Shown one piece after another: positions 1-60,600 of a stretch of DNA of 64,000 nucleotides. The stretch comes from Raja brachyura. Lineage: Eukaryota. Position numbers and translations under genes: made by a program. Under the pieces are notes generated by a model. It did not search any database and was not told where the DNA came from. It saw only the letters and a program-made list of their open reading frames with translations. Each line of letters begins with the position of its first letter. Positions within the stretch are counted from its first letter, which is position 1. Location of the stretch: NCBI GenBank assembly GCA_963514005.1, contig OY740797.1, positions 19,778,001 through 19,842,000 on the forward strand, in the 5' to 3' direction.

Positions 1-1562
1 GTGGATTCATTTAAAGAGTCTGGTAATTTTCCTTGTTCATATGCATGTCTATACACTGTATGTAGTCTTGGAGAGATCAGATCTTGAAATTTTTAATAAA
101 ATTCTGCACTCAGGCCGTCAGGCCCCGCAGCTTTTCCATTCTTTAATGAACCAATTGATTCTGCGATATCTTTCACTGATATTTCAGCATTTAACAAATG
201 TCTCCCTTCCTGATCTAAACTCTTAATTTGACATTCTTGTAGAAATGTTTCCATTCCATCTGTTTGTCCTGTTAATTTTGATGAGTAAAGATTTTGGTAA
301 TATTGTAAAAATCTATCATTAATATCTTTTGGTATGGTCAGTATATTTCCTTGCATTGATCTGATTCCATGTATCGTTTTTTCATCGTCTAATTTTCTTA
401 ATTGTCGTGCTAGCAATTTATGCGGTTTATCTCCAAATTCAAAATGCACTTGTTTGGTTTGTTGAAAAGGTTTGATGACTTGATTAGAGTATATTTTATT
501 TAGTCTATACTTTGCTATTGCAATTTTATTACTTAACTCCTTAGAAGGGTGTTTTATATTCTCATTGTCTAGTTGTTTTATCTCCATTTCTAACTTCTGT
601 TCCCTCTTTCGGTTTTCTTTATTAAAATATGCTTGTGCCGATATTATTGCACCACGCATGAATGCCTTAAATGTATCCCAAAGTAACAATGGTGAAATTT
701 CAGGTGTGTCGTTTGTCTCAAAGAATAATTTAATCTGTTCTGTCACATGATTACAACAATCCTTGTCCTTCAGTATCTGAGGACTAAATCTCCAAGTCAT
801 AGTTTTATTAGATATATCTTTTAGTTTTATCTTAAATGTTAATGGTGCATGATCTGAAATAATAATATTGTGATATTTTGCATTGTACGTAAAGGGAAGC
901 AGTTTTGAGTCTATTAAAAAGTAATCTATCCTCGAGTAGGTTCCGAATACGGGCGAGAAAAAAGAATATTCTCGTCCGGATGGGTTCTCTAATCTCCAAA
1001 TATCCTTAACGTTAGTTGAGTTAATGAAAGAATTTATAAGTTTACTTGAATTAGAAATAGCTTTCCTTTTTGTTGAGGATCTGTCTAAGTAGTTATCCAA
1101 AGTGCAGTTTAAATCACCCCCAATTATTAAATTATGTTGAGTGGATATAGGAATATTATTGAATATTTTCTTGAAAAATAATGGGTTATCGAAATTAGGA
1201 GCATATATATTCATAAGAATTACTTTTTTTGAGTATAATTCCCCTGTAATTATTACATATCTGCCCTCTTTATCTTCTATTATAGAACTTTGTTTAAAAG
1301 GTATACCTTTACGAATAATTATTGCAACTCCCCTAGATTTATGTATAAATGAAGAATGATATACCTTTGAAATCCATTTAGCTGTTAATCTATATTGATC
1401 ATCTCTTTTGAGATGCGTCTCTTGGAGGAAAATAACGTCTGATTTCAATCTATTCAGCTGCGCTAACACCTTACCCCTTTTAATTGGTTCATTAATTCCC
1501 TTAACATTCCAACTACAGAAAGTGATTCCATCATCCCCAGTCTTCAAATTCATATCTTGCAT
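1..1562 (-). pseudogene. L1 ORF2 (APE endonuclease plus start of RT) with one in-frame nonsense codon
   Basis: Motifs SWNVKG, FLQETH, NIYAPN, GGDLN, SRIDYF, SDHAP and KAAGPDG. TAA at 93-95 is followed by an in-frame continuation (EFY*KFQDLISPRL...QGKLPDSLNES). Confidence 0.92.
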
Positions 1563-2174
1563 TTTAGTGTTAGGGTGGTTTTTTTTGGAGTAGCCCTCTC
1601 GGCCCCTCCAGCTCAACAAGGCACCCAAACGCCAATCCGACGAAAATTACCAATCTCAATAATCCATATCCATGTCTATCTAAAATAGTTATACGGTATT
1701 GTTCATAATTGCATTCATATAATATATAACATAAATTCAAATACTTAATATATTAAAAAAAATGGAAATTATGTGAAAAAAGAAAAAAAGAGTGTTAAAA
1801 GGGTGCCCAAAGAAAAAAAAGACTACACTGATAGATTGTGTAGTGTGTGTTAGTGAACGCCACACTAACGTGGCGATTAATCTAATGACTTCCGTGTTTA
1901 AAAAAGATGTTAAATATTCCAGCTCCCAACTAGAATACTGTGTATATTGGGGTGGGGTACTAACTTTAAGGATTTAGTAATTATTTCTATTATTCATGAA
2001 ACTATTTATTAATTACTATTCTATTGTAATTAGTATTATAATAAATAATACTATGTTAGGGGAATTATTGAAATTCTACAAATTGATACCAAACCACTAC
2101 TACATTCCCATTATTTTCCCGCTTTCTCAATGAATAATTCATAACCGCAGGTTAATGATAAAAGTCCAAAATGT

Positions 2175-3308
2175 TCAGTCGTCGTCTTCTTCCTCCCGTG
2201 ATTCATCGTCTGCTTCCTCCTCTTCTGCCTTCTTCTGTATGCCTTGAGCGAACTTCAATGCATCAGTATGCTTAACGAAGCGGTGTTCCTCGTTGTCATA
2301 GGTCACTCTCAGTGTTGCTGGGTACATCAAGCCATATCTGAGATCCACTGTATTCTTTAAATTCCGTAGAATGCCTCTTGTTTCAGTGAATAAGGATCTT
2401 CTCTTAGCAACTTCCGCTGGGTAATCTCTGAAGATACTAATGTTATTTCCTTCGTATTTCAAATTTCTCTTTCTCATTATTATCTTCATCATATCTTCAA
2501 AGACATGATCATACACCACCTTTACAATCATTTGTCTGGGTGGTGCACCTCTTCCAGGGACCCGTCTTAAAGCCCTGTGGGCACGGCCCAACAGTGGTTC
2601 TTCATCCAATTCCAAAATGTCTTTTAGGAGTTTTGCAACAAATTTTCGTGGATCTTGATTTCCTTCACAACCTTCGGTCAATCCTACAATTCGCAAATTC
2701 TTACGTCTTTGTCGGCCCTCCAAATCAATACATTTCTCATTTATTTTGCGAAGTAGTTCTGAGAGGCGTTTATTCTCGGCAAGTAACTTCTCGGTTTCCT
2801 TGGCACTTTTTACAGCAAAATCAGCCAAATCTTTAAGTGTATCATTGTGTTGGTCAATTGTAATGGTAATAGGATCTATCTTATCATTCAGCATTTGTTC
2901 CAACCCAGCAACCTTGGCGTTTATCTCAGAGAATCGGTTTTGAAATTCAGCCTCCGTCTTACTTTTCCATTCGCTCATCATAATCTTTACCGTCTCGGTA
3001 ACTTCTTTTGTTAATTCCACTTTAATTCTCTCATGAGACACCAGAATCTCCGCTTTTAGATTTTTTATTTCATCTTTATATTCTTTCTTCATGTCTTTAA
3101 ATTCATCTTTATATTCCTTCTTCAGATCTTTTATTTCTTTCACCAGTTTCTTCATCTCACCTATCATGGAATTTTTGAACTCTTCCATTTCCACTTTTCT
3201 CTGTGAGATCTCTTCCTGGGAGGCAGTCAGACTCGAGCCCGAGGCTTTGGTGGTGCCAGCCTCTCTTCTTAGGCCCGTTTTCTTCGGGGGAGGGGAGGAG
3301 TGCTGCAT
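2175..3308 (-). CDS. L1 ORF1p (coiled coil plus RRM/CTD, Transposase_22-like)
   Basis: Intact 377-aa ORF: heptad-rich N-half, then DLEGRQRRKNLRIVGLTEG, RAHR, IFRDYP and YGLMYPATLRV motifs. Confidence 0.93.
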   Translation of the reverse strand: MQHSSPPPKKTGLRREAGTTKASGSSLTASQEEISQRKVEMEEFKNSMIGEMKKLVKEIKDLKKEYKDEFKDMKKEYKDEIKNLKAEILVSHERIKVELTKEVTETVKIMMSEWKSKTEAEFQNRFSEINAKVAGLEQMLNDKIDPITITIDQHNDTLKDLADFAVKSAKETEKLLAENKRLSELLRKINEKCIDLEGRQRRKNLRIVGLTEGCEGNQDPRKFVAKLLKDILELDEEPLLGRAHRALRRVPGRGAPPRQMIVKVVYDHVFEDMMKIIMRKRNLKYEGNNISIFRDYPAEVAKRRSLFTETRGILRNLKNTVDLRYGLMYPATLRVTYDNEEHRFVKHTDALKFAQGIQKKAEEEEADDESREEEDDD

Positions 3309-3495
3309 TTTAAATTTCTTACCGAAGTCGCGCGCCTGATGACGTCACGCAGCCTTCAATCACACCGGAGCCGTTTTTAATCGATCTCCTGCGGTAAGTA
3401 GCGTTAGCACCCTCCTTTAGCCCCGTTTTTTTTGCAGATTTTTACGGAGCTGATCTGGCGCTGTTCTCCCCTAGAACATGGCGCCACCGGAAGTC

Positions 3496-4375
3496 TTAGC
3501 TTTTAATTCTGTAAGAGAACAAGATACTGCCAGTAAATAGTTCCTTAAGAATACATCACTGCCCTCTATGGTGGGTATTCATTCTATCTTTCCCAACGAA
3601 GGTAACCCAAACAACATTTCATAGGGGGATACTGCTAACTTTGCATGGGGTCTCTGTTGCTTTTCTCAAAGCCTTCCTGTTTCCCTACTGCTCCAAACAT
3701 GTGCCAGACTCTATGTACATATGCTGCTCTTAAAGCCTTAATTTCTGCCAACTGAGCTAAGCAAGATTGCAGACAAGCTTCCAATTTGATTACCTTAAAG
3801 TCTAATTCATCCTGATGCACCACTTCAAACCCTGCATACTTGCTATTATGATCCCTTTAACAAGAAACATCCACAAGCAAAACCTTTTTGTCCCCTTCAT
3901 TCAAAGGCTCCGACTGTAAAACATTTCTCAGACTTGTATGTCCTTCTTCCTTCATTATTTTCCTTAATGGCATCACAATTTCAACATACTTTCCAATCTA
4001 GTCTGAACTATATCCTGCCATTCCCAGATCATCATCATCTGTCCTACTGTCTGAGGTTTGGGAACTTCAATTATCACTTCAATTTGATCCTGCTCTATGG
4101 CTTTTAGTTCTTTAGATATTACTCGTCCAAAATATTCTACCTGCTGCTGACAAAACAACAACTACTTCCTTGATACTTTATGACCTCCTGTGCCATCTTT
4201 TCCAAGATAATTACAATGTCTCTCTCACATTGCTTCTCACTTGTGGAGCAAACCAACAAATCATCCACATACTATATCAACACCTTCCAAATCTGCCTTT
4301 AACATCTGATTAAAAACATGGGGCTAGTATTTAAAACCTGCTGCATCCTAACCTAGGTGTATTTAATACCTCTTC
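3496..4375 (-). pseudogene. pol: Retroviral pol fragments (RT core, RNase H, integrase C-terminus) with large deletions
   Basis: VFNQMLKADLE..LI*YVDDLLVCST; FCQQQVEYFGRVIS..PKPQTVGQMM; AQLAEIKALRAA; VSPYEMLFGLP..FLRNYLLAVS. Confidence 0.85.
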
Positions 4376-4399: not shown

Positions 4400-5760
4400 T
4401 CACCATTATCTTAATTATTATTATTATTTCTTGATTACCATACCTGTCCACATCCCCAACACATCTTATCCATTACCTGTCTCCTTACTAGCCTTTCTTG
4501 ACCTCCTCTTTGAGATCCCTCCCTCCCTTGGGGACCCCAGTCTAGTCTGGTCTTATATCCAGATTTATTTCACTCCTGATAGGGCATTTGAGGAAACACT
4601 CTCCCAAATACATTTATTATTGGCATGGAATTCTCTGGCCCCTGTTTGGCTGTCATAGGACTCACTGTGTGTCGGTGCATCAATTATTTCAGACTTTTCA
4701 ACCAGGTCAACATTGTCTTTCCTTTTTCACACTCTTTCTTTTTGAGCTCTTCAAGTTACACTTGCATCATTTTTCTCTGCACCTCTTCCTGCTGGTCTGC
4801 AAATCTTTTTCCTATCTTTGCAATATTTCTCAACCTCATTGACCAAATGCTCACTGAATCAGGGGTGGGAAATAGATGACAATCCCTCCACCTCCTCCAA
4901 TCTAGACTTGACTTTAGAAGGAATGACATCCACCACAGTGGTTCAGAACATAGTGTTCATTAACTGGTTGCCTTCTATTTCTTGTTCAGTTTCCAGTCTC
5001 AACCTTTTCAGCTTGTTCTCCAGATAGGCTGCTGGATTATTGTCTGAGGGCCTGCCATAGCCTCTGCCCGACTGTGTCAAACAGCGTGCCATTGTTTGTT
5101 GCATTGTTCACAGCATTTTTATATCAGCCATCTTCAGGAGTTCTGTCAGTTTAGTGGTTCCTATCACTTTCACCAACAGTGCCTTCAAATCTCCCATAGC
5201 CAATAATCGCCCCACGTTCTCCTCCTCCAAAGCCATAATCCATTGCCTGCCCCATCAGGAATATTGGGTAAGGTATTTTTTAGCCCTCTCAGATTATGAG
5301 TGCCCCAAAGGATAATCTGTGTCTGGCCTGCTCTTATCATTTTAAAGCACTCATCAATTTATCCCTCTGCTTCCCACTTTAATCCTTTCTGATATGCTTT
5401 CTTTCTCATTCTAAACTCAATTTCTCACTTCTCAGATACTTTATCCTACTTTTCAAATGTATTCACCTTTCTTTTAAAATCTTCCACTAACTCCTCCTGA
5501 TTTATTACTTTCACACCTGTCGTTTCCTACTTCTGTTACCTCCTCACTGCCTCTCTCTCCTTTCTCTCTAAACTGCCTAAGTACATCTAATTTATTTGCT
5601 CTCCCCTTTTCCCACCTTTCCACCTTATCTGTGACATATAATTCGTAATTAACACTTCCATCTTGTCACACATTTATCTTGAAAGTGCCTTCCTTGGGCC
5701 ACTTCCTCACAACAGTTTCTGAAAATCTCAGCAAACAATCATTACCCTTCTCCAACCAGA
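4400..5760 (-). pseudogene. gag: Second, epsilon-like/fish-type retroviral gag (decayed)
   Basis: WPKEGTF at 5681-5701 and LPNIPDGAG.WIMALEEENVGRLLAMGDLKALLVKVIG at about 5160-5280. Many stops and indels. Confidence 0.7.
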
Positions 5761-6229
5761 ATGCTTATCTAAACAAACCACAAAAGCTGGTCATGTTTCA
5801 GCAATTAACTTATTTCCAATTATTTCAATCCATTCTTACCACTATTTAGTACTAGTAACAATTTTCCAAATAGCTTTACTGAAAAGAAATCTATAGACAC
5901 ATCAGCAAAACCAAGCAATCTACATTTTCCAACTTTACCCTTTTAAGTTGTGATGATACAAAGCGTTGTTCGTTACCTTACAGCTGTTCATAACCTCCCC
6001 CATTGCTTACAATTTCTTAAAGGAACACACACACACCTACCCTTACAGCATGTGGCCTACAACAAACAAACTTATCACATGCATGAACTTCCTCATTCAT
6101 GCAAAATCGGTTTTTACACACAAATCATATTCATTCCATTCTTACTTCAATGAAATTATGCAATTTCCTATACAGATTAAAGTTCCAAAATTAACATTTA
6201 TATAATTCTTATTGCTACTCTACCTTCTG

Positions 6230-6587
6230 CTATTCTATAATATTTTGCACTAACTCCTCATGTACCTGACCAATCTGTATATGAGTTTCTTCTATAGATT
6301 GTGTGAAACAACTTAATATTTCTTTCATGTGCTTAAGATGAGCTTCAATTTCCTGAAATTTCTTTGAAGTTTCTGTCAATTTTTGTTCAAAATCTGTTTT
6401 TCCACATATAATTTATAGGTTTCTGTAGCTTTTTTTTAGATTTGACAGTTGCCTTTTCTATTTCTTTCTGTGTTGCTCCTTCCTTTTTTAACTTTTCGTA
6501 CTCAAAACATTTGGCACTGTGATTTTCCTTAGATTTTTGCAATGTTTGAGTGATACTCTGAATATTCTGTACAGCATCCAAAGTGCC
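6230..6587 (-). pseudogene. FCHO2: Intronless FCHO2-like (F-BAR domain) host gene fragment inside the ERV
   Basis: [52 protein letters not shown] / [11 protein letters not shown] / [51 protein letters not shown] is colinear with the vertebrate FCHO2 F-BAR sequence as I recall it. It has two frame disruptions. Confidence 0.88.
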
Positions 6588-6825
6588 CAATCCTTATCGG
6601 AGCGCAGCTGTGGCCACCAGACTGAACTCCCCCATATTGGTTCCTTTGGTTAATCAAAATAACAGAACTTAATCATAATCTCCTTATCTTTACCCCTGGA
6701 GCTTCCTTCTCCCCAAGATTGCCACATTCGCCCCAACGGACTATCAGGCGGAATGTGCGGCTCTTCACCATTGAGCCTTTTTATTTTCCCCCCGGACTCT
6801 TACTTTTCCCGTTCCGGTTATCCAT
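6588..6825 (-). pseudogene. gag: Gamma-like retroviral Gag matrix N-terminus (decayed)
   Basis: ATG at 6825 (MDNRNGKSK), then across one frameshift and stops [59 protein letters not shown]. Confidence 0.8.
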
Positions 6826-7086: not shown

Positions 7087-7104
7087 ATCGCGGACGAGCC
7101 CCCA
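7087..7104 (-). promoter_or_regulatory. Primer binding site, tRNA-Pro
   Basis: TGGGGGCTCGTCCGCGAT matches the MLV-type PBS-Pro TGGGGGCTCGTCCGGGAT at 17 of 18 positions. Confidence 0.92.
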
Positions 7105-7107
7105 GCT

Positions 7108-7667
7108 TGTGAGATATAGTTTGTGCTCACAATCACTACTCAGAGACTAAATCGTGGAAACTAGAAATGCTTTATTTGCAAGTCTGCAGAATCGGGTGTC
7201 TCTCCAAGTTGAGACACACCAAGCAAAGTAAAAACGTCTATTTTTATACAATTCATTGTACAATCTTTATTGATCGGACACCTCCCCTTCTGACCCCTTC
7301 CAATCAGGGTACTGAGGTTCACAATCTTCCAACCCTCCCCTCCGTGCGTCATCAATCATTCCCTCTTCTCCCACATCATACATCGCATGTACATTTAAAT
7401 TAGGTTCTTTGTCATGAGGGGCGTAAAGTTAATATTCATTTATTTCATTAAGCATGCTCAGTCGCTTTTGCCCTAACCTATTTTATTGCCTTTGACCTAA
7501 AGACTAGCTTCTGTGTTGTCAGCTACATTCCTTACCTCATCTTGTTATTCTACAATGTTATCAACAGCTCTGAAGGACAGTAACAGTTTGTTCGAATCAC
7601 AAGGTTGGTGATTCCAACTATTCGGCCCATCACAAGGTTGGTGGTTACAACCACTCGGCCCCTCACA
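7108..7667 (-). repeat. 5' LTR of the ERV (about 560 bp)
   Basis: Minus strand starts TGTGAG and ends CTCACA (6-bp terminal inverted repeat). TATAAAAA at 7241-7248, AATAAA at 7171-7176, a U3 direct repeat around 7597-7660, and the PBS 3 nt downstream. Confidence 0.85.
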
Positions 7668-7689
7668 ATGATGGTGGTTTAATCATCTT

Positions 7690-8170
7690 ATCCCTCACAT
7701 GCGTTTGGCCCATATCCTTGAAACCTGTCCCATCCACGTACCTGTCTAAATGTTTCTTAAACGTTGCGCCAGTGCCTTCCTCAATGACCTTCTCTGGCAG
7801 CTGTTCCATATACCTACCGCCCTTTGTGAAAATGTCACCCCTCAGATTCCTATTAGATGTTTCCCCCCTCACCTAAAAACTATGGACTATGGTTCTTGAT
7901 TCACCTACTCTGGGGAGAGAATCTGTGCGTCTGTACGATCTATTCCTCTCATGATTTTATTTACCTCAGTATTCATCCTCCTTCTCTGCCAGGAATAGAG
8001 TCCAATCTTGCTCAACCTATCCCTTTCGCTCAGTCCTAGCAACATCTTCGTATATCTTTTCTGCACTCTTTCCAGCTTGACAACATATTTCTTAAAACAT
8101 GATGCCCAACATTGAACACAATACTCTAAATACGGCTTCACCAACGTCTTATGCTACGACAACATGGACT
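7690..8170 (-). mobile_element. CR1 LINE 3' fragment
   Basis: LVKPYLEYCVQCWA..LERVQKRYTKML is typical of the CR1 ORF2 C-terminus. Confidence 0.85.
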
Positions 8171-24120: not shown

Positions 24121-25200
24121 CCACCCCCATTGATATTATATTAATATTATTAATTCACTCCTTTTACCCCATGCCCTGCCCTATCCACTCACACATAGCC
24201 CCCAATTCGCAGGCACGGGGCGGGGGGCGGGGGGAGACAAGGCACAGAGAGGGAGACAGAAGCACAGAGAGGGAGACACGGAGGCACAAAGAGGGAGACA
24301 CGGAGGCACAGAGAGAGACACGGAGGCGCATAGGGACACGGAGGCACAGAGAGGGACACGGAGGCACACGGAGACGGACACGGAGGCAGACAGAGGGACA
24401 CGGAGGCACAGAGAGGGAGACGGAGGCACACAGGGTGGGGCACGGAGGCACACAGAGGCACAGAGATGGAGACGGAGCCACAGAGAGGGACACCGAGGCA
24501 CACAGAGAGGGACACGGAGGCACACAGAGAGGAACGGAGGCACACAGAGAGGGACACGGCGGCACACAAAGAGGGACACAGAGGCACACAGAGAGAGGCA
24601 CACAGAGAGGGACGCACAGAGAGGGACGCACAGAGAGGGACGCACAGAGAGGGACGCACAGAGAGGGACGCACAGAAAGGGACACAGAAATGGACACAGA
24701 GGCAGGGGAGCTTCCTGCCTTTTGGAGCTGGGGTTTCCAGCTATCCGCTGCCTTTTGGAGCTGGGGTTTCCGATTTGCGGCGTGTTTTGAACGGGCGACC
24801 CTGCTGCTGCGAGCGGAGAGGACGATCAAAAGCAGCAGAGGACCAGCCGACGAGAGAGGGGGGGGGGGGGGGAGAGGGGAGCGGGGAGAAGGGAGGGGGG
24901 GGGGAGGGAAGAAGGGAGGGAGGAGAGTTGTAGGGCCACCCAGCAGCCGTCGGCCTCAGAGTGAGCCTCAGCTCCATGGCCTCGCATGGTCGGCGCTTCA
25001 GAACCCGAGTACGGTGAGGGGGGGGGGGGAGGGTGGAGTTGGCGGGCGGGTGGGCGTGATCCTGAGTGAGCCTTCGAGCCGCCAGCGAGGATGCGAAAAG
25101 CAGCGGGGGGACCGGCGGGGGGCGGGGGGGGGGGGGGGGGGGTGTTAGTGGAGGAACGCCGGGCGGCAGCAGCCGTTATCGTCGCGCGTTTACACGTCAC
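23970..25200. repeat. Repeat element containing (CT)n(CA)n, a GA-rich minisatellite (about 24235-24700) and G-runs; possibly a non-autonomous rolling-circle type
   Basis: Starts with the palindromic motif GACCAAGTGCAGACCCGTTGGATCTG, similar to 53402 GACCAAGTGGGCCCCGTTGGGCCCC. Tandem GAGGGACACGGAGGCACAGA units. Confidence 0.5.
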
Positions 25201-57639: not shown

Positions 57640-60600
57640 CAAGGCAAGGCAAATTTATTTATACAGCACCATTCGTACAAGCTGCAATTCATAGTGCTTT
57701 ACAAAAGAAACAAAAGAATAACATAGTTTAAAAACATTGCAGAACCACAATACAACACAGGACAACAAAATAGCCAATAATCAAAAATTACATAACAAGC
57801 AATAAGACAATTGCATGAATAGTAAAACAAAATCACTAAACCATGAAAACGATTTTAAAAGCACATAAAAGGGTTAAGATTAGAAGGTTAAGATTACCTG
57901 CATGTTGGGTTATGGAAAATTTAATCATAACGAATTTTTAAATCATAAATAAAAATTATGATTTTTATGAAACACCTAAAAATCAGTGTTTTTAGGCCTG
58001 ATTTAAATGAGGTTACAGTCTGTGCACACCTCAGGTGTTCATGGAGCTTGTTCCACAGGCGTAGAGCATAAAAACTGAACGCTGCTTCAGCCTTTTTAGT
58101 TCTGACCCTGGGAACACAGAGTAAACCTTTCCCTGAAGACCTGAGGAGTCTAGGTGCCTCATATACAACAAGAAGGTCAGTGATGTATTTTGGACCCAGA
58201 CCATTCAGTGCCTTGTAGGCCAATAACAGAATTTTAAAATCTATCTTTTTATACACAGGGAGCCAGTGCAAAGATTTAAGGACAGGTATAATGTGGTCCA
58301 TTTTCTTGGTGTTGGTCAAGACTCTGGCAGCGGCATTCTGGATAAGCTGCAGATGTTTAATTGATTTTACTGAGACCTGTAATGATGCCATTACAATAAT
58401 CTAACCTACTGAAAGTATATGCATAAACAAGTTTTTCAGTGTCTTCTTTGGACAGAAATCCCTTGATTCTTGCAATGCTTTTTAGATGGTAGTAGGCAGA
58501 TTTGGTAATGGTCTTTATATGGCTGTTAAAATTCAAATCCGAGTCCATAACTACACCAAGGTTTCTGGCTTTGTCTGTGGTTTTCAGTGTGATTGAGTCA
58601 AGTTGAGCACTTATCTCTAGCCTTGTATTTTTGGGACCAAAGACAATAATTTCTGTCTTATTTGCATTGAGCTGGAGGAAGTTCTTGTTCATCCACTCAT
58701 TGATTTGTTTGACACACTGACTCAGTGAGTGTAGGGGACTATGGTCATGTGGTGACACTGCGATATAAAGTTGTGCGTCATCAGCATAAGTATGGTAGGA
58801 TATGTTAAAATACTCCATGATCTGAGCTAGGGGGAGCATATAAATATTGAACAAGATGGGTCCAAGAATGGAGCCCTGGGGAACCCCGCATGTGAGTTTT
58901 GTATGTTCTGATTCATAATTACCAAGGGAAACAAAATAATCCCGATCTTTCAAGTAGGATTTGAACCAGTCCAGCACGGAACCAGAGAGACCTACCCACT
59001 TCTCCAGTCTGTCAAGCAGTATGTTATGGTCCACCGTATCAAAAGTAGCACTGAGATCTAGAAGTACCAAAACTGAAGCTTTTGATGCATCACTGTTTAG
59101 ATGTATGTCGTTTAGGACCTTAGTAAGTGCAGTCTCAGTGCTGTGATGTGGCCGAAATCCCGACTGGAAAACATTAAAAATATTGTTTTGGATCATAAAG
59201 CTGTAAATTTGTTTATAAACTACCCTTTCAATGATCTTTGCCAGAAATGCTAAATTAGATATGGGCCTGTAGCTGCCCATAGCTGAGGCATCCAGATTTG
59301 GCTTCTTCAATAGGGGCTTGATCACTGCAGTTTTTAAGGCTTTGGGAAAATGCCCCAATCGAAGGGACGAGTTTACTATGTTCAGCACTTCTGGTGTAAC
59401 ACTGTTAAAAATATTTTTTTCACTGTTAAGAATATTTCGGAGTGGCGGCGCTGCTTGTCAGCTGCGGCTCACCTGCAGTCCGTCTGTCTTTTATTTTATT
59501 TTTGTCCTCGTCCCTGTTTTTGGTGTTTATTTTTGGTTTGTTGGGTTGTGTATGTGTGTGGGTGGGGGGGGGGGAGGGTGGGAGAAACGGGGTTTTAGTC
59601 TCTCCCTTCGGGGGGATGCGACTTTTCCTGTCGTGTCCCCCGACACCGTCTCCGTCTGTGCTGAGGCCCTGGTGACGGCCTTCCAGCTTCCAGCGGCGGC
59701 GCCACGGCCTTCAGAGCTTCAGCAGCGACCTGGCTTCCGGCGGCGACCTGGTTTTCGGGAGGTGCGGTGCTCCAGCGGCAGCCTGGGTTTGGGGAGCTGC
59801 GGTGCTCCAGCGGCGGCCTGGCTCCCTCTGAGCTGCGGTGCTCCAGCGGCGGCCTGGCTCCCTCTGAGCTGTGGTGCTCCAGCGGCGGCCTGGGTTTCGG
59901 GAGCTGCGGTGCTCCAGCGGCGGCCTGGCTCCCTCTGAGCTGCGGTGCTCCAGCGGCGACCTGGGTGTCGGGAACTGCGGTGCTCCAGTGGCGGCCTGGC
60001 TCCCTCTGAGCTGCGGTGCTCCAGCGGTGGCCTGGCTCCCTCTGAGCTGCGGTGCTCCAGCGGCGGATGAGTTTCGGGAGCTGCGGTGCTCCAGCGGTGG
60101 CCTGGCTTTCGGGAGCTGCGGTGCTCCAGCGGCGGCCTGGCTCCCTCTGAGCTGCGGTGCTCCAGCGGCGGTTTGGGTTTCGGGAGCTGCGGTGCTCCAG
60201 CGGCGACCTGGGTTTCGGGAGCTGCGGTGCTCCAGCGGTGGCCTGGCGTTCGGGAGCTGCGGTGCTCCAGCAGCGGACTGGGTTTCGGGAGCAGCGGTGC
60301 TCCAGCGGCGGACTGGCTTTCGGGTGCTGCGGTGCTCCAGCGGTGGCCTGGCTTTCGGGAGCTGCGGTGCTCCAGCGGCGGCCTGGCTTTCGGGAGCTGC
60401 GGTGCTCCAGCGACGTTCCGGCGGCGGGCCCTGTGGCGGTGTTCCGGCGTTCCGGCGTCAGCGGTAGCGGCGGCCTGGATCCCCTCAGCGCAGAGGGAGA
60501 ATAAGGAGGGGAGAAAAGACAGAGACCCTAAGACTTTTGCCTTCCACCACAGTGAGGAGGTGTTTGGTGAACTCACTGTGGTGGATGTTAATTTTGTGTT

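Follow-up and report, generated by a model that had tools for sequence, protein, structure and literature searches.

An FCHO2 insert with the exon order and length of a circular RNA in the gag region of a skate endogenous retrovirus family

The DNA analysed here (the window) is a stretch of 64,000 nucleotides (nt) from the skate Raja brachyura (assembly GCA_963514005.1, contig OY740797.1, positions 19,778,001 to 19,842,000, forward strand). Its minus strand carries a decayed endogenous retrovirus (ERV) whose gag region is interrupted by a spliced piece of the host gene FCHO2, and this piece is probably what remains of a single lap of a circular RNA (circRNA). The element starts with a 5' long terminal repeat (LTR) with TG...CA ends at 7108..7699; a preliminary description of this DNA had already noted an LTR here. 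A tRNA primer-binding site (PBS) follows just inside the LTR at 7087..7104; the site itself is present as described, and its label as tRNA-Pro is presumed. A gag matrix-like 5' part (6587..6799), which comes after a leader and contains an in-frame stop, ends with ...RSDKDW at 6587 and the FCHO2 piece begins at the adjoining base, 6586, and extends to 6231. The abutment of the two was thus correctly described, while the matrix label has no Pfam match, nor have the other short decayed gag pieces of the window element, and the label depends on a presumed resemblance to the matrix of class I ERVs and otherwise on position and the pol and env evidence.

The identity of the insert as FCHO2 was upheld. 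Its first open piece matches residues 123-174 of the human FCHO2 structure 2v0o with an E value of 8.6e-20, and the closest named proteins, among the best 120 of 525 matches, are FCHO2 of the skates Amblyraja radiata and Leucoraja erinacea (96%). The host FCHO2 gene is found on contig C3 (G000:C3, loci L046 and L047). Aligned with it, the window piece consists of nt 20-153 of exon 5, exon 6, exon 7 and the first 34 nt of exon 8, covering only residues ∼119-240 of the protein. It crosses three exon junctions from which the introns are gone, which bears out the spliced origin proposed earlier. Overall it is ∼96% identical to the host exons; taken separately, exons 5, 6, 7 and 8 give 97%, 81% with a gap, 94% and 92%. 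The piece starts in the middle of exon 5, where there is no exon edge, and differs from the host by insertions of two letters (in a run of A) and one letter, a 16-nt deletion in exon 6 and the loss of one codon (3 nt). Host exons 2-8 are 92, 75, 142, 153, 105, 99 and 97 nt long, 763 nt in total, and all are bounded by AG and GT. A single exon 8 and a single exon 2 were found in the host, exon 8 lying 28 kb downstream of exon 2. The linear mRNA in a contig from public run X2, taken by guess to be RNA, has exon 2 preceded by exon 1 and exon 8 followed by exon 9, which confirms exons 2 and 8 as the edges of the proposed circle. An inverted match of 95 bp (82%) was seen between FCHO2 introns 1 and 8 (L058:2218-2312 and L057:1379-1473). 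Comparison of the introns flanking the circle (5 kb by 4.5 kb) gave one inverted and one direct match, the level expected by chance in a repeat-rich genome; the inverted match may help back-splicing or be fortuitous, and was given no weight.

The rest of the insert was found in other copies. A search with FCHO2 residues 1-112 gave many spliced copies in which these residues lie downstream of residues 120-240. In the ∼30 copies with the complete insert, called type A, the order of the exons is 5b-6-7-8 followed by 2-3-4-5a. Of 37 matches, 30 span the join of exon 8 to exon 2, two over the whole query and 28 as far as an exon 2 deletion of later date; of the remaining seven, two are the host exons, separated by 28 kb, and five are pieces of exon 2. 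In all five loci which retain both ends, exon 8 meets exon 2 precisely at the splice sites, the join having been lost by deletion in L041 and L042 and L055 being truncated. The insert of L043 extends from nt 20 of exon 5 right round to nt 23 of exon 5 with GCAC at both ends, in other words one lap, and an exit within 4 nt of the entry would be expected by chance in only ∼1% of cases (an estimate, 9/763). The insert holds only exons of the circle, has no poly-A and has viral sequence on either side. These features point to a 763-nt circRNA of FCHO2 exons 2-8, copied for one lap, as the probable source, and the window copy is a truncated derivative of such a one-lap insert without the back-splice join.

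Both filled and empty forms of the virus were observed when public sequencing runs (four of 23 listed) were compared against locus L044. X8 and X9 are DNA runs of two organisms other than that of the window, and in their contigs one matrix flank leads straight into the other with six letters in between, the six viral letters which the insert replaces. The depth of these empty-site contigs is roughly double that of the host exons. FCHO2 exons in X8 and X9 appear only with intron ends, an unbroken host contig of 4.5 kb passing through exon 5, and no back-splice contig was observed, though contigs show presence and not absence. Run X11 has all three joins (5', back-splice and 3') at high depth, but may come from the same species as the window and is not independent. 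At the 3' join virus and host exon 5 have six of seven letters in common and at the 5' join one. Host RNA has replaced part of an element at microsimilarity and the same chimera occurs at many dispersed sites, two features of LTR-mediated retrocopies.

The cassette is abundant. A nucleotide search gave 443 candidates, the 40 scored being all 95-100% identical over their full length; a protein search gave 511 (150 scored) and an LTR search 1547 (40 scored). A 26-nt motif spanning the 16-nt deletion occurs at 357 places in the genome (control 0) and the undeleted motif at 28, one of which is host exon 6, leaving 27 undeleted copies. By eye, 26 of these 27 are also in the list of copies with the back-splice join. 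At least 384 places therefore bear FCHO2, a number which includes tandem or assembly duplicates (even spacing on C5, C10 and C29, identical scores on C157, C929 and C15) such that independent insertions are fewer. The evenly spaced arrays are at G000:C5:30599199-30611350, C10:5278697-5290630 and C29:21634217-21833779, with periods of ∼6 kb and ∼45 kb. For detailed comparison 34 distinct loci of types B and C and up to eight of type A were picked by similarity, L031, L033, L034, L036, L039 and L040 being removed as duplicates. Among the 34 the 5' join is identical throughout, the 16-nt deletion is present in 32, the other two having larger losses at that site, and a one-letter insertion near the end is present in 33. 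Eight of them (L005, L007, L022, L024, L032, L035, L037 and L038) differ in their LTR, carry an additional stretch of matrix (∼70% identical) upstream of the FCHO2 cassette, and constitute a third, recombinant type. Types A and B have in common the 5' join and eight of ten checked differences from the host, and thus derive from one capture. The earlier suggestion that a chondrichthyan retrovirus lineage had made the capture agrees with these many copies of one junction. Copy L050 sits within another copy of the same family, and L012:1327-1452 is a short inverted duplication of the matrix-FCHO2 join.

Type A elements carry further host RNA. The order in L048 is FCHO2, the rest of the matrix, RRBP1, a short repeat, a CCHCR1-like piece, RNase H, integrase and the start of env. 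The RRBP1 piece (L048:2511-3334) matches residues 503-708 and 874-949 of query P0122 at 88-92%; it is colinear with an internal gap of ∼165 codons. The CCHCR1-like piece (L048:3492-4116) consists of three spliced exons (Pfam HCR, 3.6e-12) whose host counterparts are on C1351 (87-92%). The RRBP1/CCHCR1 block is present at ∼30-40 places (40 of 54 candidates scored).

Several observations weigh against a circular source and a passive insert. The window copy has no back-splice junction itself and is linked to the circle through shared descent. Among the runs on record for the element none is listed as RNA, and the circRNA was not seen as a living RNA, the guessed RNA run X2 having linear forms only and giving no evidence either way. 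The 5' join has the single common base noted above. No empty parent was found in the window genome, where the exact pattern had no matches, though a more diverged parent could be missed, and 33 of 33 matches to the downstream flank lie beside FCHO2 matches (compared by eye). The 3' LTR was not seen in the 8.5 kb of L048, the only type A element read far enough. Finally, in the 34 similarity-chosen copies 24 of 85 private changes are synonymous where 17.7 would be expected (ratio 0.67, p 0.11). The private substitutions in these copies fall 30, 23 and 34 at the three codon positions and include four stops. They are compatible with neutrality without proving it, and weak constraint is possible.

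Taking these points into account, it is still considered likely that a circRNA of FCHO2 exons 2-8 was co-packaged and copied for one lap into gag, and that the crippled element then spread. A class I skate retrovirus with an ERV3-1-like env would have packaged the host circRNA along with its own genome. During minus-strand synthesis reverse transcriptase may have left the viral RNA in gag matrix at the short near-match (6/7 nt) to exon 5 and travelled backwards round the circle, crossing the back-splice junction. The RNase H of reverse transcriptase removes template that has been copied. Copying would have ended after one lap with the template already destroyed by the enzyme's own RNase H, and the enzyme would then have switched back to viral RNA at a point a few bases further upstream. 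By breaking gag, the insert would have left an element which was non-autonomous and spread in trans with the proteins of a helper. In this putative order of captures, type A, carrying pieces of RRBP1 and CCHCR1 mRNA as well, would have reached ∼30-40 sites. A derivative which kept only the 5' 360 nt, gained the 16-nt deletion and joined other retroviral parts and LTRs, giving types B and C and the window copy, would have reached more than 350. A double switch at microsimilarity, multi-gene cases and further rounds have been described for linear mRNA in the available part of one study (PMC5131818), and the available part of another reports fourteen host circRNAs in HIV-1 particles with Gag alone being sufficient (bioRxiv 10.64898/2026.01.21.700838).

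The same scheme could be extended by placing the capture in another skate lineage, the cassette having arrived by infection. In exons 2-8 ten sites distinguish organism A from the resident FCHO2, judged from mismatch totals and the rows listed, and the viral copies agree with organism A at all ten and with the resident gene at none. However, three of the ten are changes in the resident gene, eight of eight other cartilaginous fishes having the viral residue, and the other seven are unpolarised. The amino acid changes of resident FCHO2 are at 130, 241 and 245, which are invariant in the eight other fishes and kept in the viral copies. Moreover, in organisms A and D the virus was seen only in its empty form, and the divergence of the type A copies is about equal to that of the host genes. 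The pattern would follow if the resident gene had evolved rapidly since an early capture, or else if the capture belongs to a different lineage, the latter being possible but doubtful.

Alternatively, a cDNA derived from the circRNA, as a circle or a linear single lap, might have been patched into a provirus by microhomology-mediated repair and then spread. A lap which begins and ends with the same four bases does resemble a single crossover, and only six viral letters were replaced. Such a DNA-level capture would have to account for a chance landing in a provirus, and the two additional host mRNA pieces in the element point to repeated switching at the RNA level of the kind set out in the available part of PMC5131818, making it unlikely. 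A further proposal accepts that the circle was copied for an RNase H-limited lap but supposes it to have been selectively packaged and to have given a cis-acting gain in packaging or RNA stability, perhaps with skate-to-skate infection. Such a gain would explain why the 5' 360 nt outlived large deletions, appeared in three LTR contexts and reached hundreds of copies. Hitch-hiking beside the leader accounts for the retention of the 5' 360 nt equally well, and this proposal too is thought unlikely.

A linear donor with repeated exons, arising by trans-splicing or from a tandem duplication since lost and entered and left at two copies of one microhomology, would also yield an exact join of exon 8 to exon 2 and a length of one unit. 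Only one exon 8 and one exon 2 were found in the host, though, and the 7-nt match is not used again in full where the copy returns to the virus. Mammalian FCHO2 does make circRNAs, but from exons 17-21 (PMC12583663) and 19-20 (PMC10838848) rather than 2-8, as given in the available parts of these papers. A linear donor is accordingly regarded as improbable.

The preliminary description had proposed that the retrovirus acquired an F-BAR module which, fused to Gag or as a separate accessory protein, might have shaped membranes during budding or interfered with endocytosis. The high copy number, the non-significant synonymous lean and two of 41 copies without a stop in the 30 matrix codons upstream of the join could be quoted in its favour; the remaining 39 have such a stop. 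In none of the 41 copies which hold the 5' join is FCHO2 in frame with the matrix, which argues strongly against the Gag fusion. Read-through from the matrix halts at codon 33 in 40 copies and at codon 25 in one. The FCHO2 frame itself meets a stop within ten codons upstream in 39 of 41, and the back-splice join also shifts the frame, 763 not being a multiple of three. The family was already broken when it spread because 357 places, against 27 without it, have the one frameshifting 16-nt deletion in common, and an accessory open reading frame (ORF) does not fit this or the upstream stops. This frame sample, picked by similarity, agrees with the genome-wide motif counts. The window copy, with residues ∼119-240 only, was rightly called dead with its frames offset, but it has three frame-changing indels and a codon deletion and not the two disruptions reported. 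With the frames closed, the suggested role in budding or endocytosis fails as well; an active F-BAR module is very improbable and the FCHO2 piece is a non-coding passenger.

Two simpler origins can be dismissed. A single processed pseudogene that had landed in a dead ERV, with its own poly-A and target site duplication (TSD), is ruled out by the many copies which have one join in common, and classic read-through capture from an intronic provirus is rejected because the 5' join is in mid-exon and the exon order is permuted.

The acutely transforming gag-onc viruses such as v-fps/v-fes are defective too, and in them a truncated gag likewise adjoins coding RNA of the host. There the host sequence is in frame, expressed and selected, whereas the skate insert is out of frame and the founder of the large family already carried it in broken form. 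Pseudogenes of circRNA near LTRs and LTR-mediated retrocopies are both already known. Mouse circRFWD2 has given 33 high-confidence and nine low-confidence pseudogenes with LTR-rich flanks by a mechanism which was called mysterious (PMC4897178), and a review, in its available part, considered that the flanks may suggest LTR mediation (PMC5408686). The mouse and skate families are alike in their non-colinear exon join, the presence of circle exons only, the absence of poly-A, dozens of copies, nearby LTR sequence (MMERVK10C-int in a figure legend of PMC4897178) and truncated copies without the join. The main text on mouse circRFWD2 has neither viral joins nor an empty virus, whereas the skate family shows both joins, the one-lap length and an empty relative. 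It also differs in being in a cartilaginous fish, in a class I virus and at ∼10 times the copy number. The LTR-mediated retrocopies of PMC5131818 (HERV-K FAM8A1, maize Bs1 and a mouse four-gene case) likewise have host RNA replacing viral sequence at microsimilarity, several genes per element and later non-autonomous rounds. Their donors are linear mRNAs, the word 'circular' not occurring in the available main text, while the skate donor is a permuted circle. The HIV-1 study (10.64898/2026.01.21.700838) provides the required first step, the entry of host circRNA into particles; its available part has no integration and no mention of FCHO2, in contrast to the integrated skate family. FCHO2, circRNA and skate are all absent from the available main text of a retrocopy preprint covering 244 genomes. 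Among the papers listed by literature searches none describes this family, or a capture of one lap for which both junctions and an empty relative are seen, though subscription papers, Repbase/Dfam and supplements may hold one.

The return of circRNA to genomes, left open by the circRNA pseudogene paper, has here a whole record of filled and empty virus, joins, circle length and decay. It suggests that RNase H limits such captures to one lap, a rule which can be tested, and supplies a signature which could be searched for in other genomes including the mouse circRFWD2 set. The copies would also be fossil evidence that the circle of exons 2-8 was once made in the skate germline or early embryo. 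In practical terms, hundreds of 96% identical copies, ∼30 of them with a back-splice junction in the genome, will interfere with the annotation of FCHO2 and the calling of circRNAs in this species.

The remainder of the window element follows on the minus strand. A non-coding linker (5800..6230) lies 3' of the FCHO2 piece; in some copies this region is ∼300 nt longer (L014:1870-2200), the extra being absent from the window copy, and Rfam gave no matches in four related loci, linker extra included. A decayed region with a WPKEGTF motif (4800..5790, no Pfam match), presumably a second gag-like region, is followed by a reverse transcriptase remnant of ∼55 residues (4048..4212; tblastn with P0300, E 2.3e-5) and an integrase remnant (3495..3659). 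The rest of integrase, an ERV3-1-like env remnant, the polypurine tract (PPT) and the 3' LTR are past the window start. The 3' LTR, at G000:C17:19772772-19773360, is 3.06% diverged from the 5' LTR and the pair has identical four flanking bases (TSD 4-5 bp). Pfam gave a match to MLVIN_C (6.5e-12), env matches bear ERV3-1-like names, and integrase (rve) and RNase H were found in type A element L048. From the reverse transcriptase, integrase and env remnants the element is assigned to the class I (gamma-like) ERVs. All three type B elements read whole have two LTRs (TG...CA), PBS, PPT and a TSD of 4-5 bp, one TSD being mismatched; the two of these other than the window copy are 6.8 kb long with LTR divergences of 3.07% and 3.45%.

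The window provirus was split after its own integration by a long interspersed nuclear element (LINE) of ∼6.1 kb, present at 1..3494 on the minus strand and extending beyond the window. It lies within the integrase region, has poly-A and a target duplication of 14-15 bp, and is young, with an open ORF1 of 389 amino acids and an endonuclease ORF of 517 amino acids in the window. No tRNA genes were found in the window. Several dispersed repeat families are present between 11 and 63 kb, and tandem repeats with periods of ∼10 nt and ∼35 nt occupy 24243-24708 and 59688-60446.
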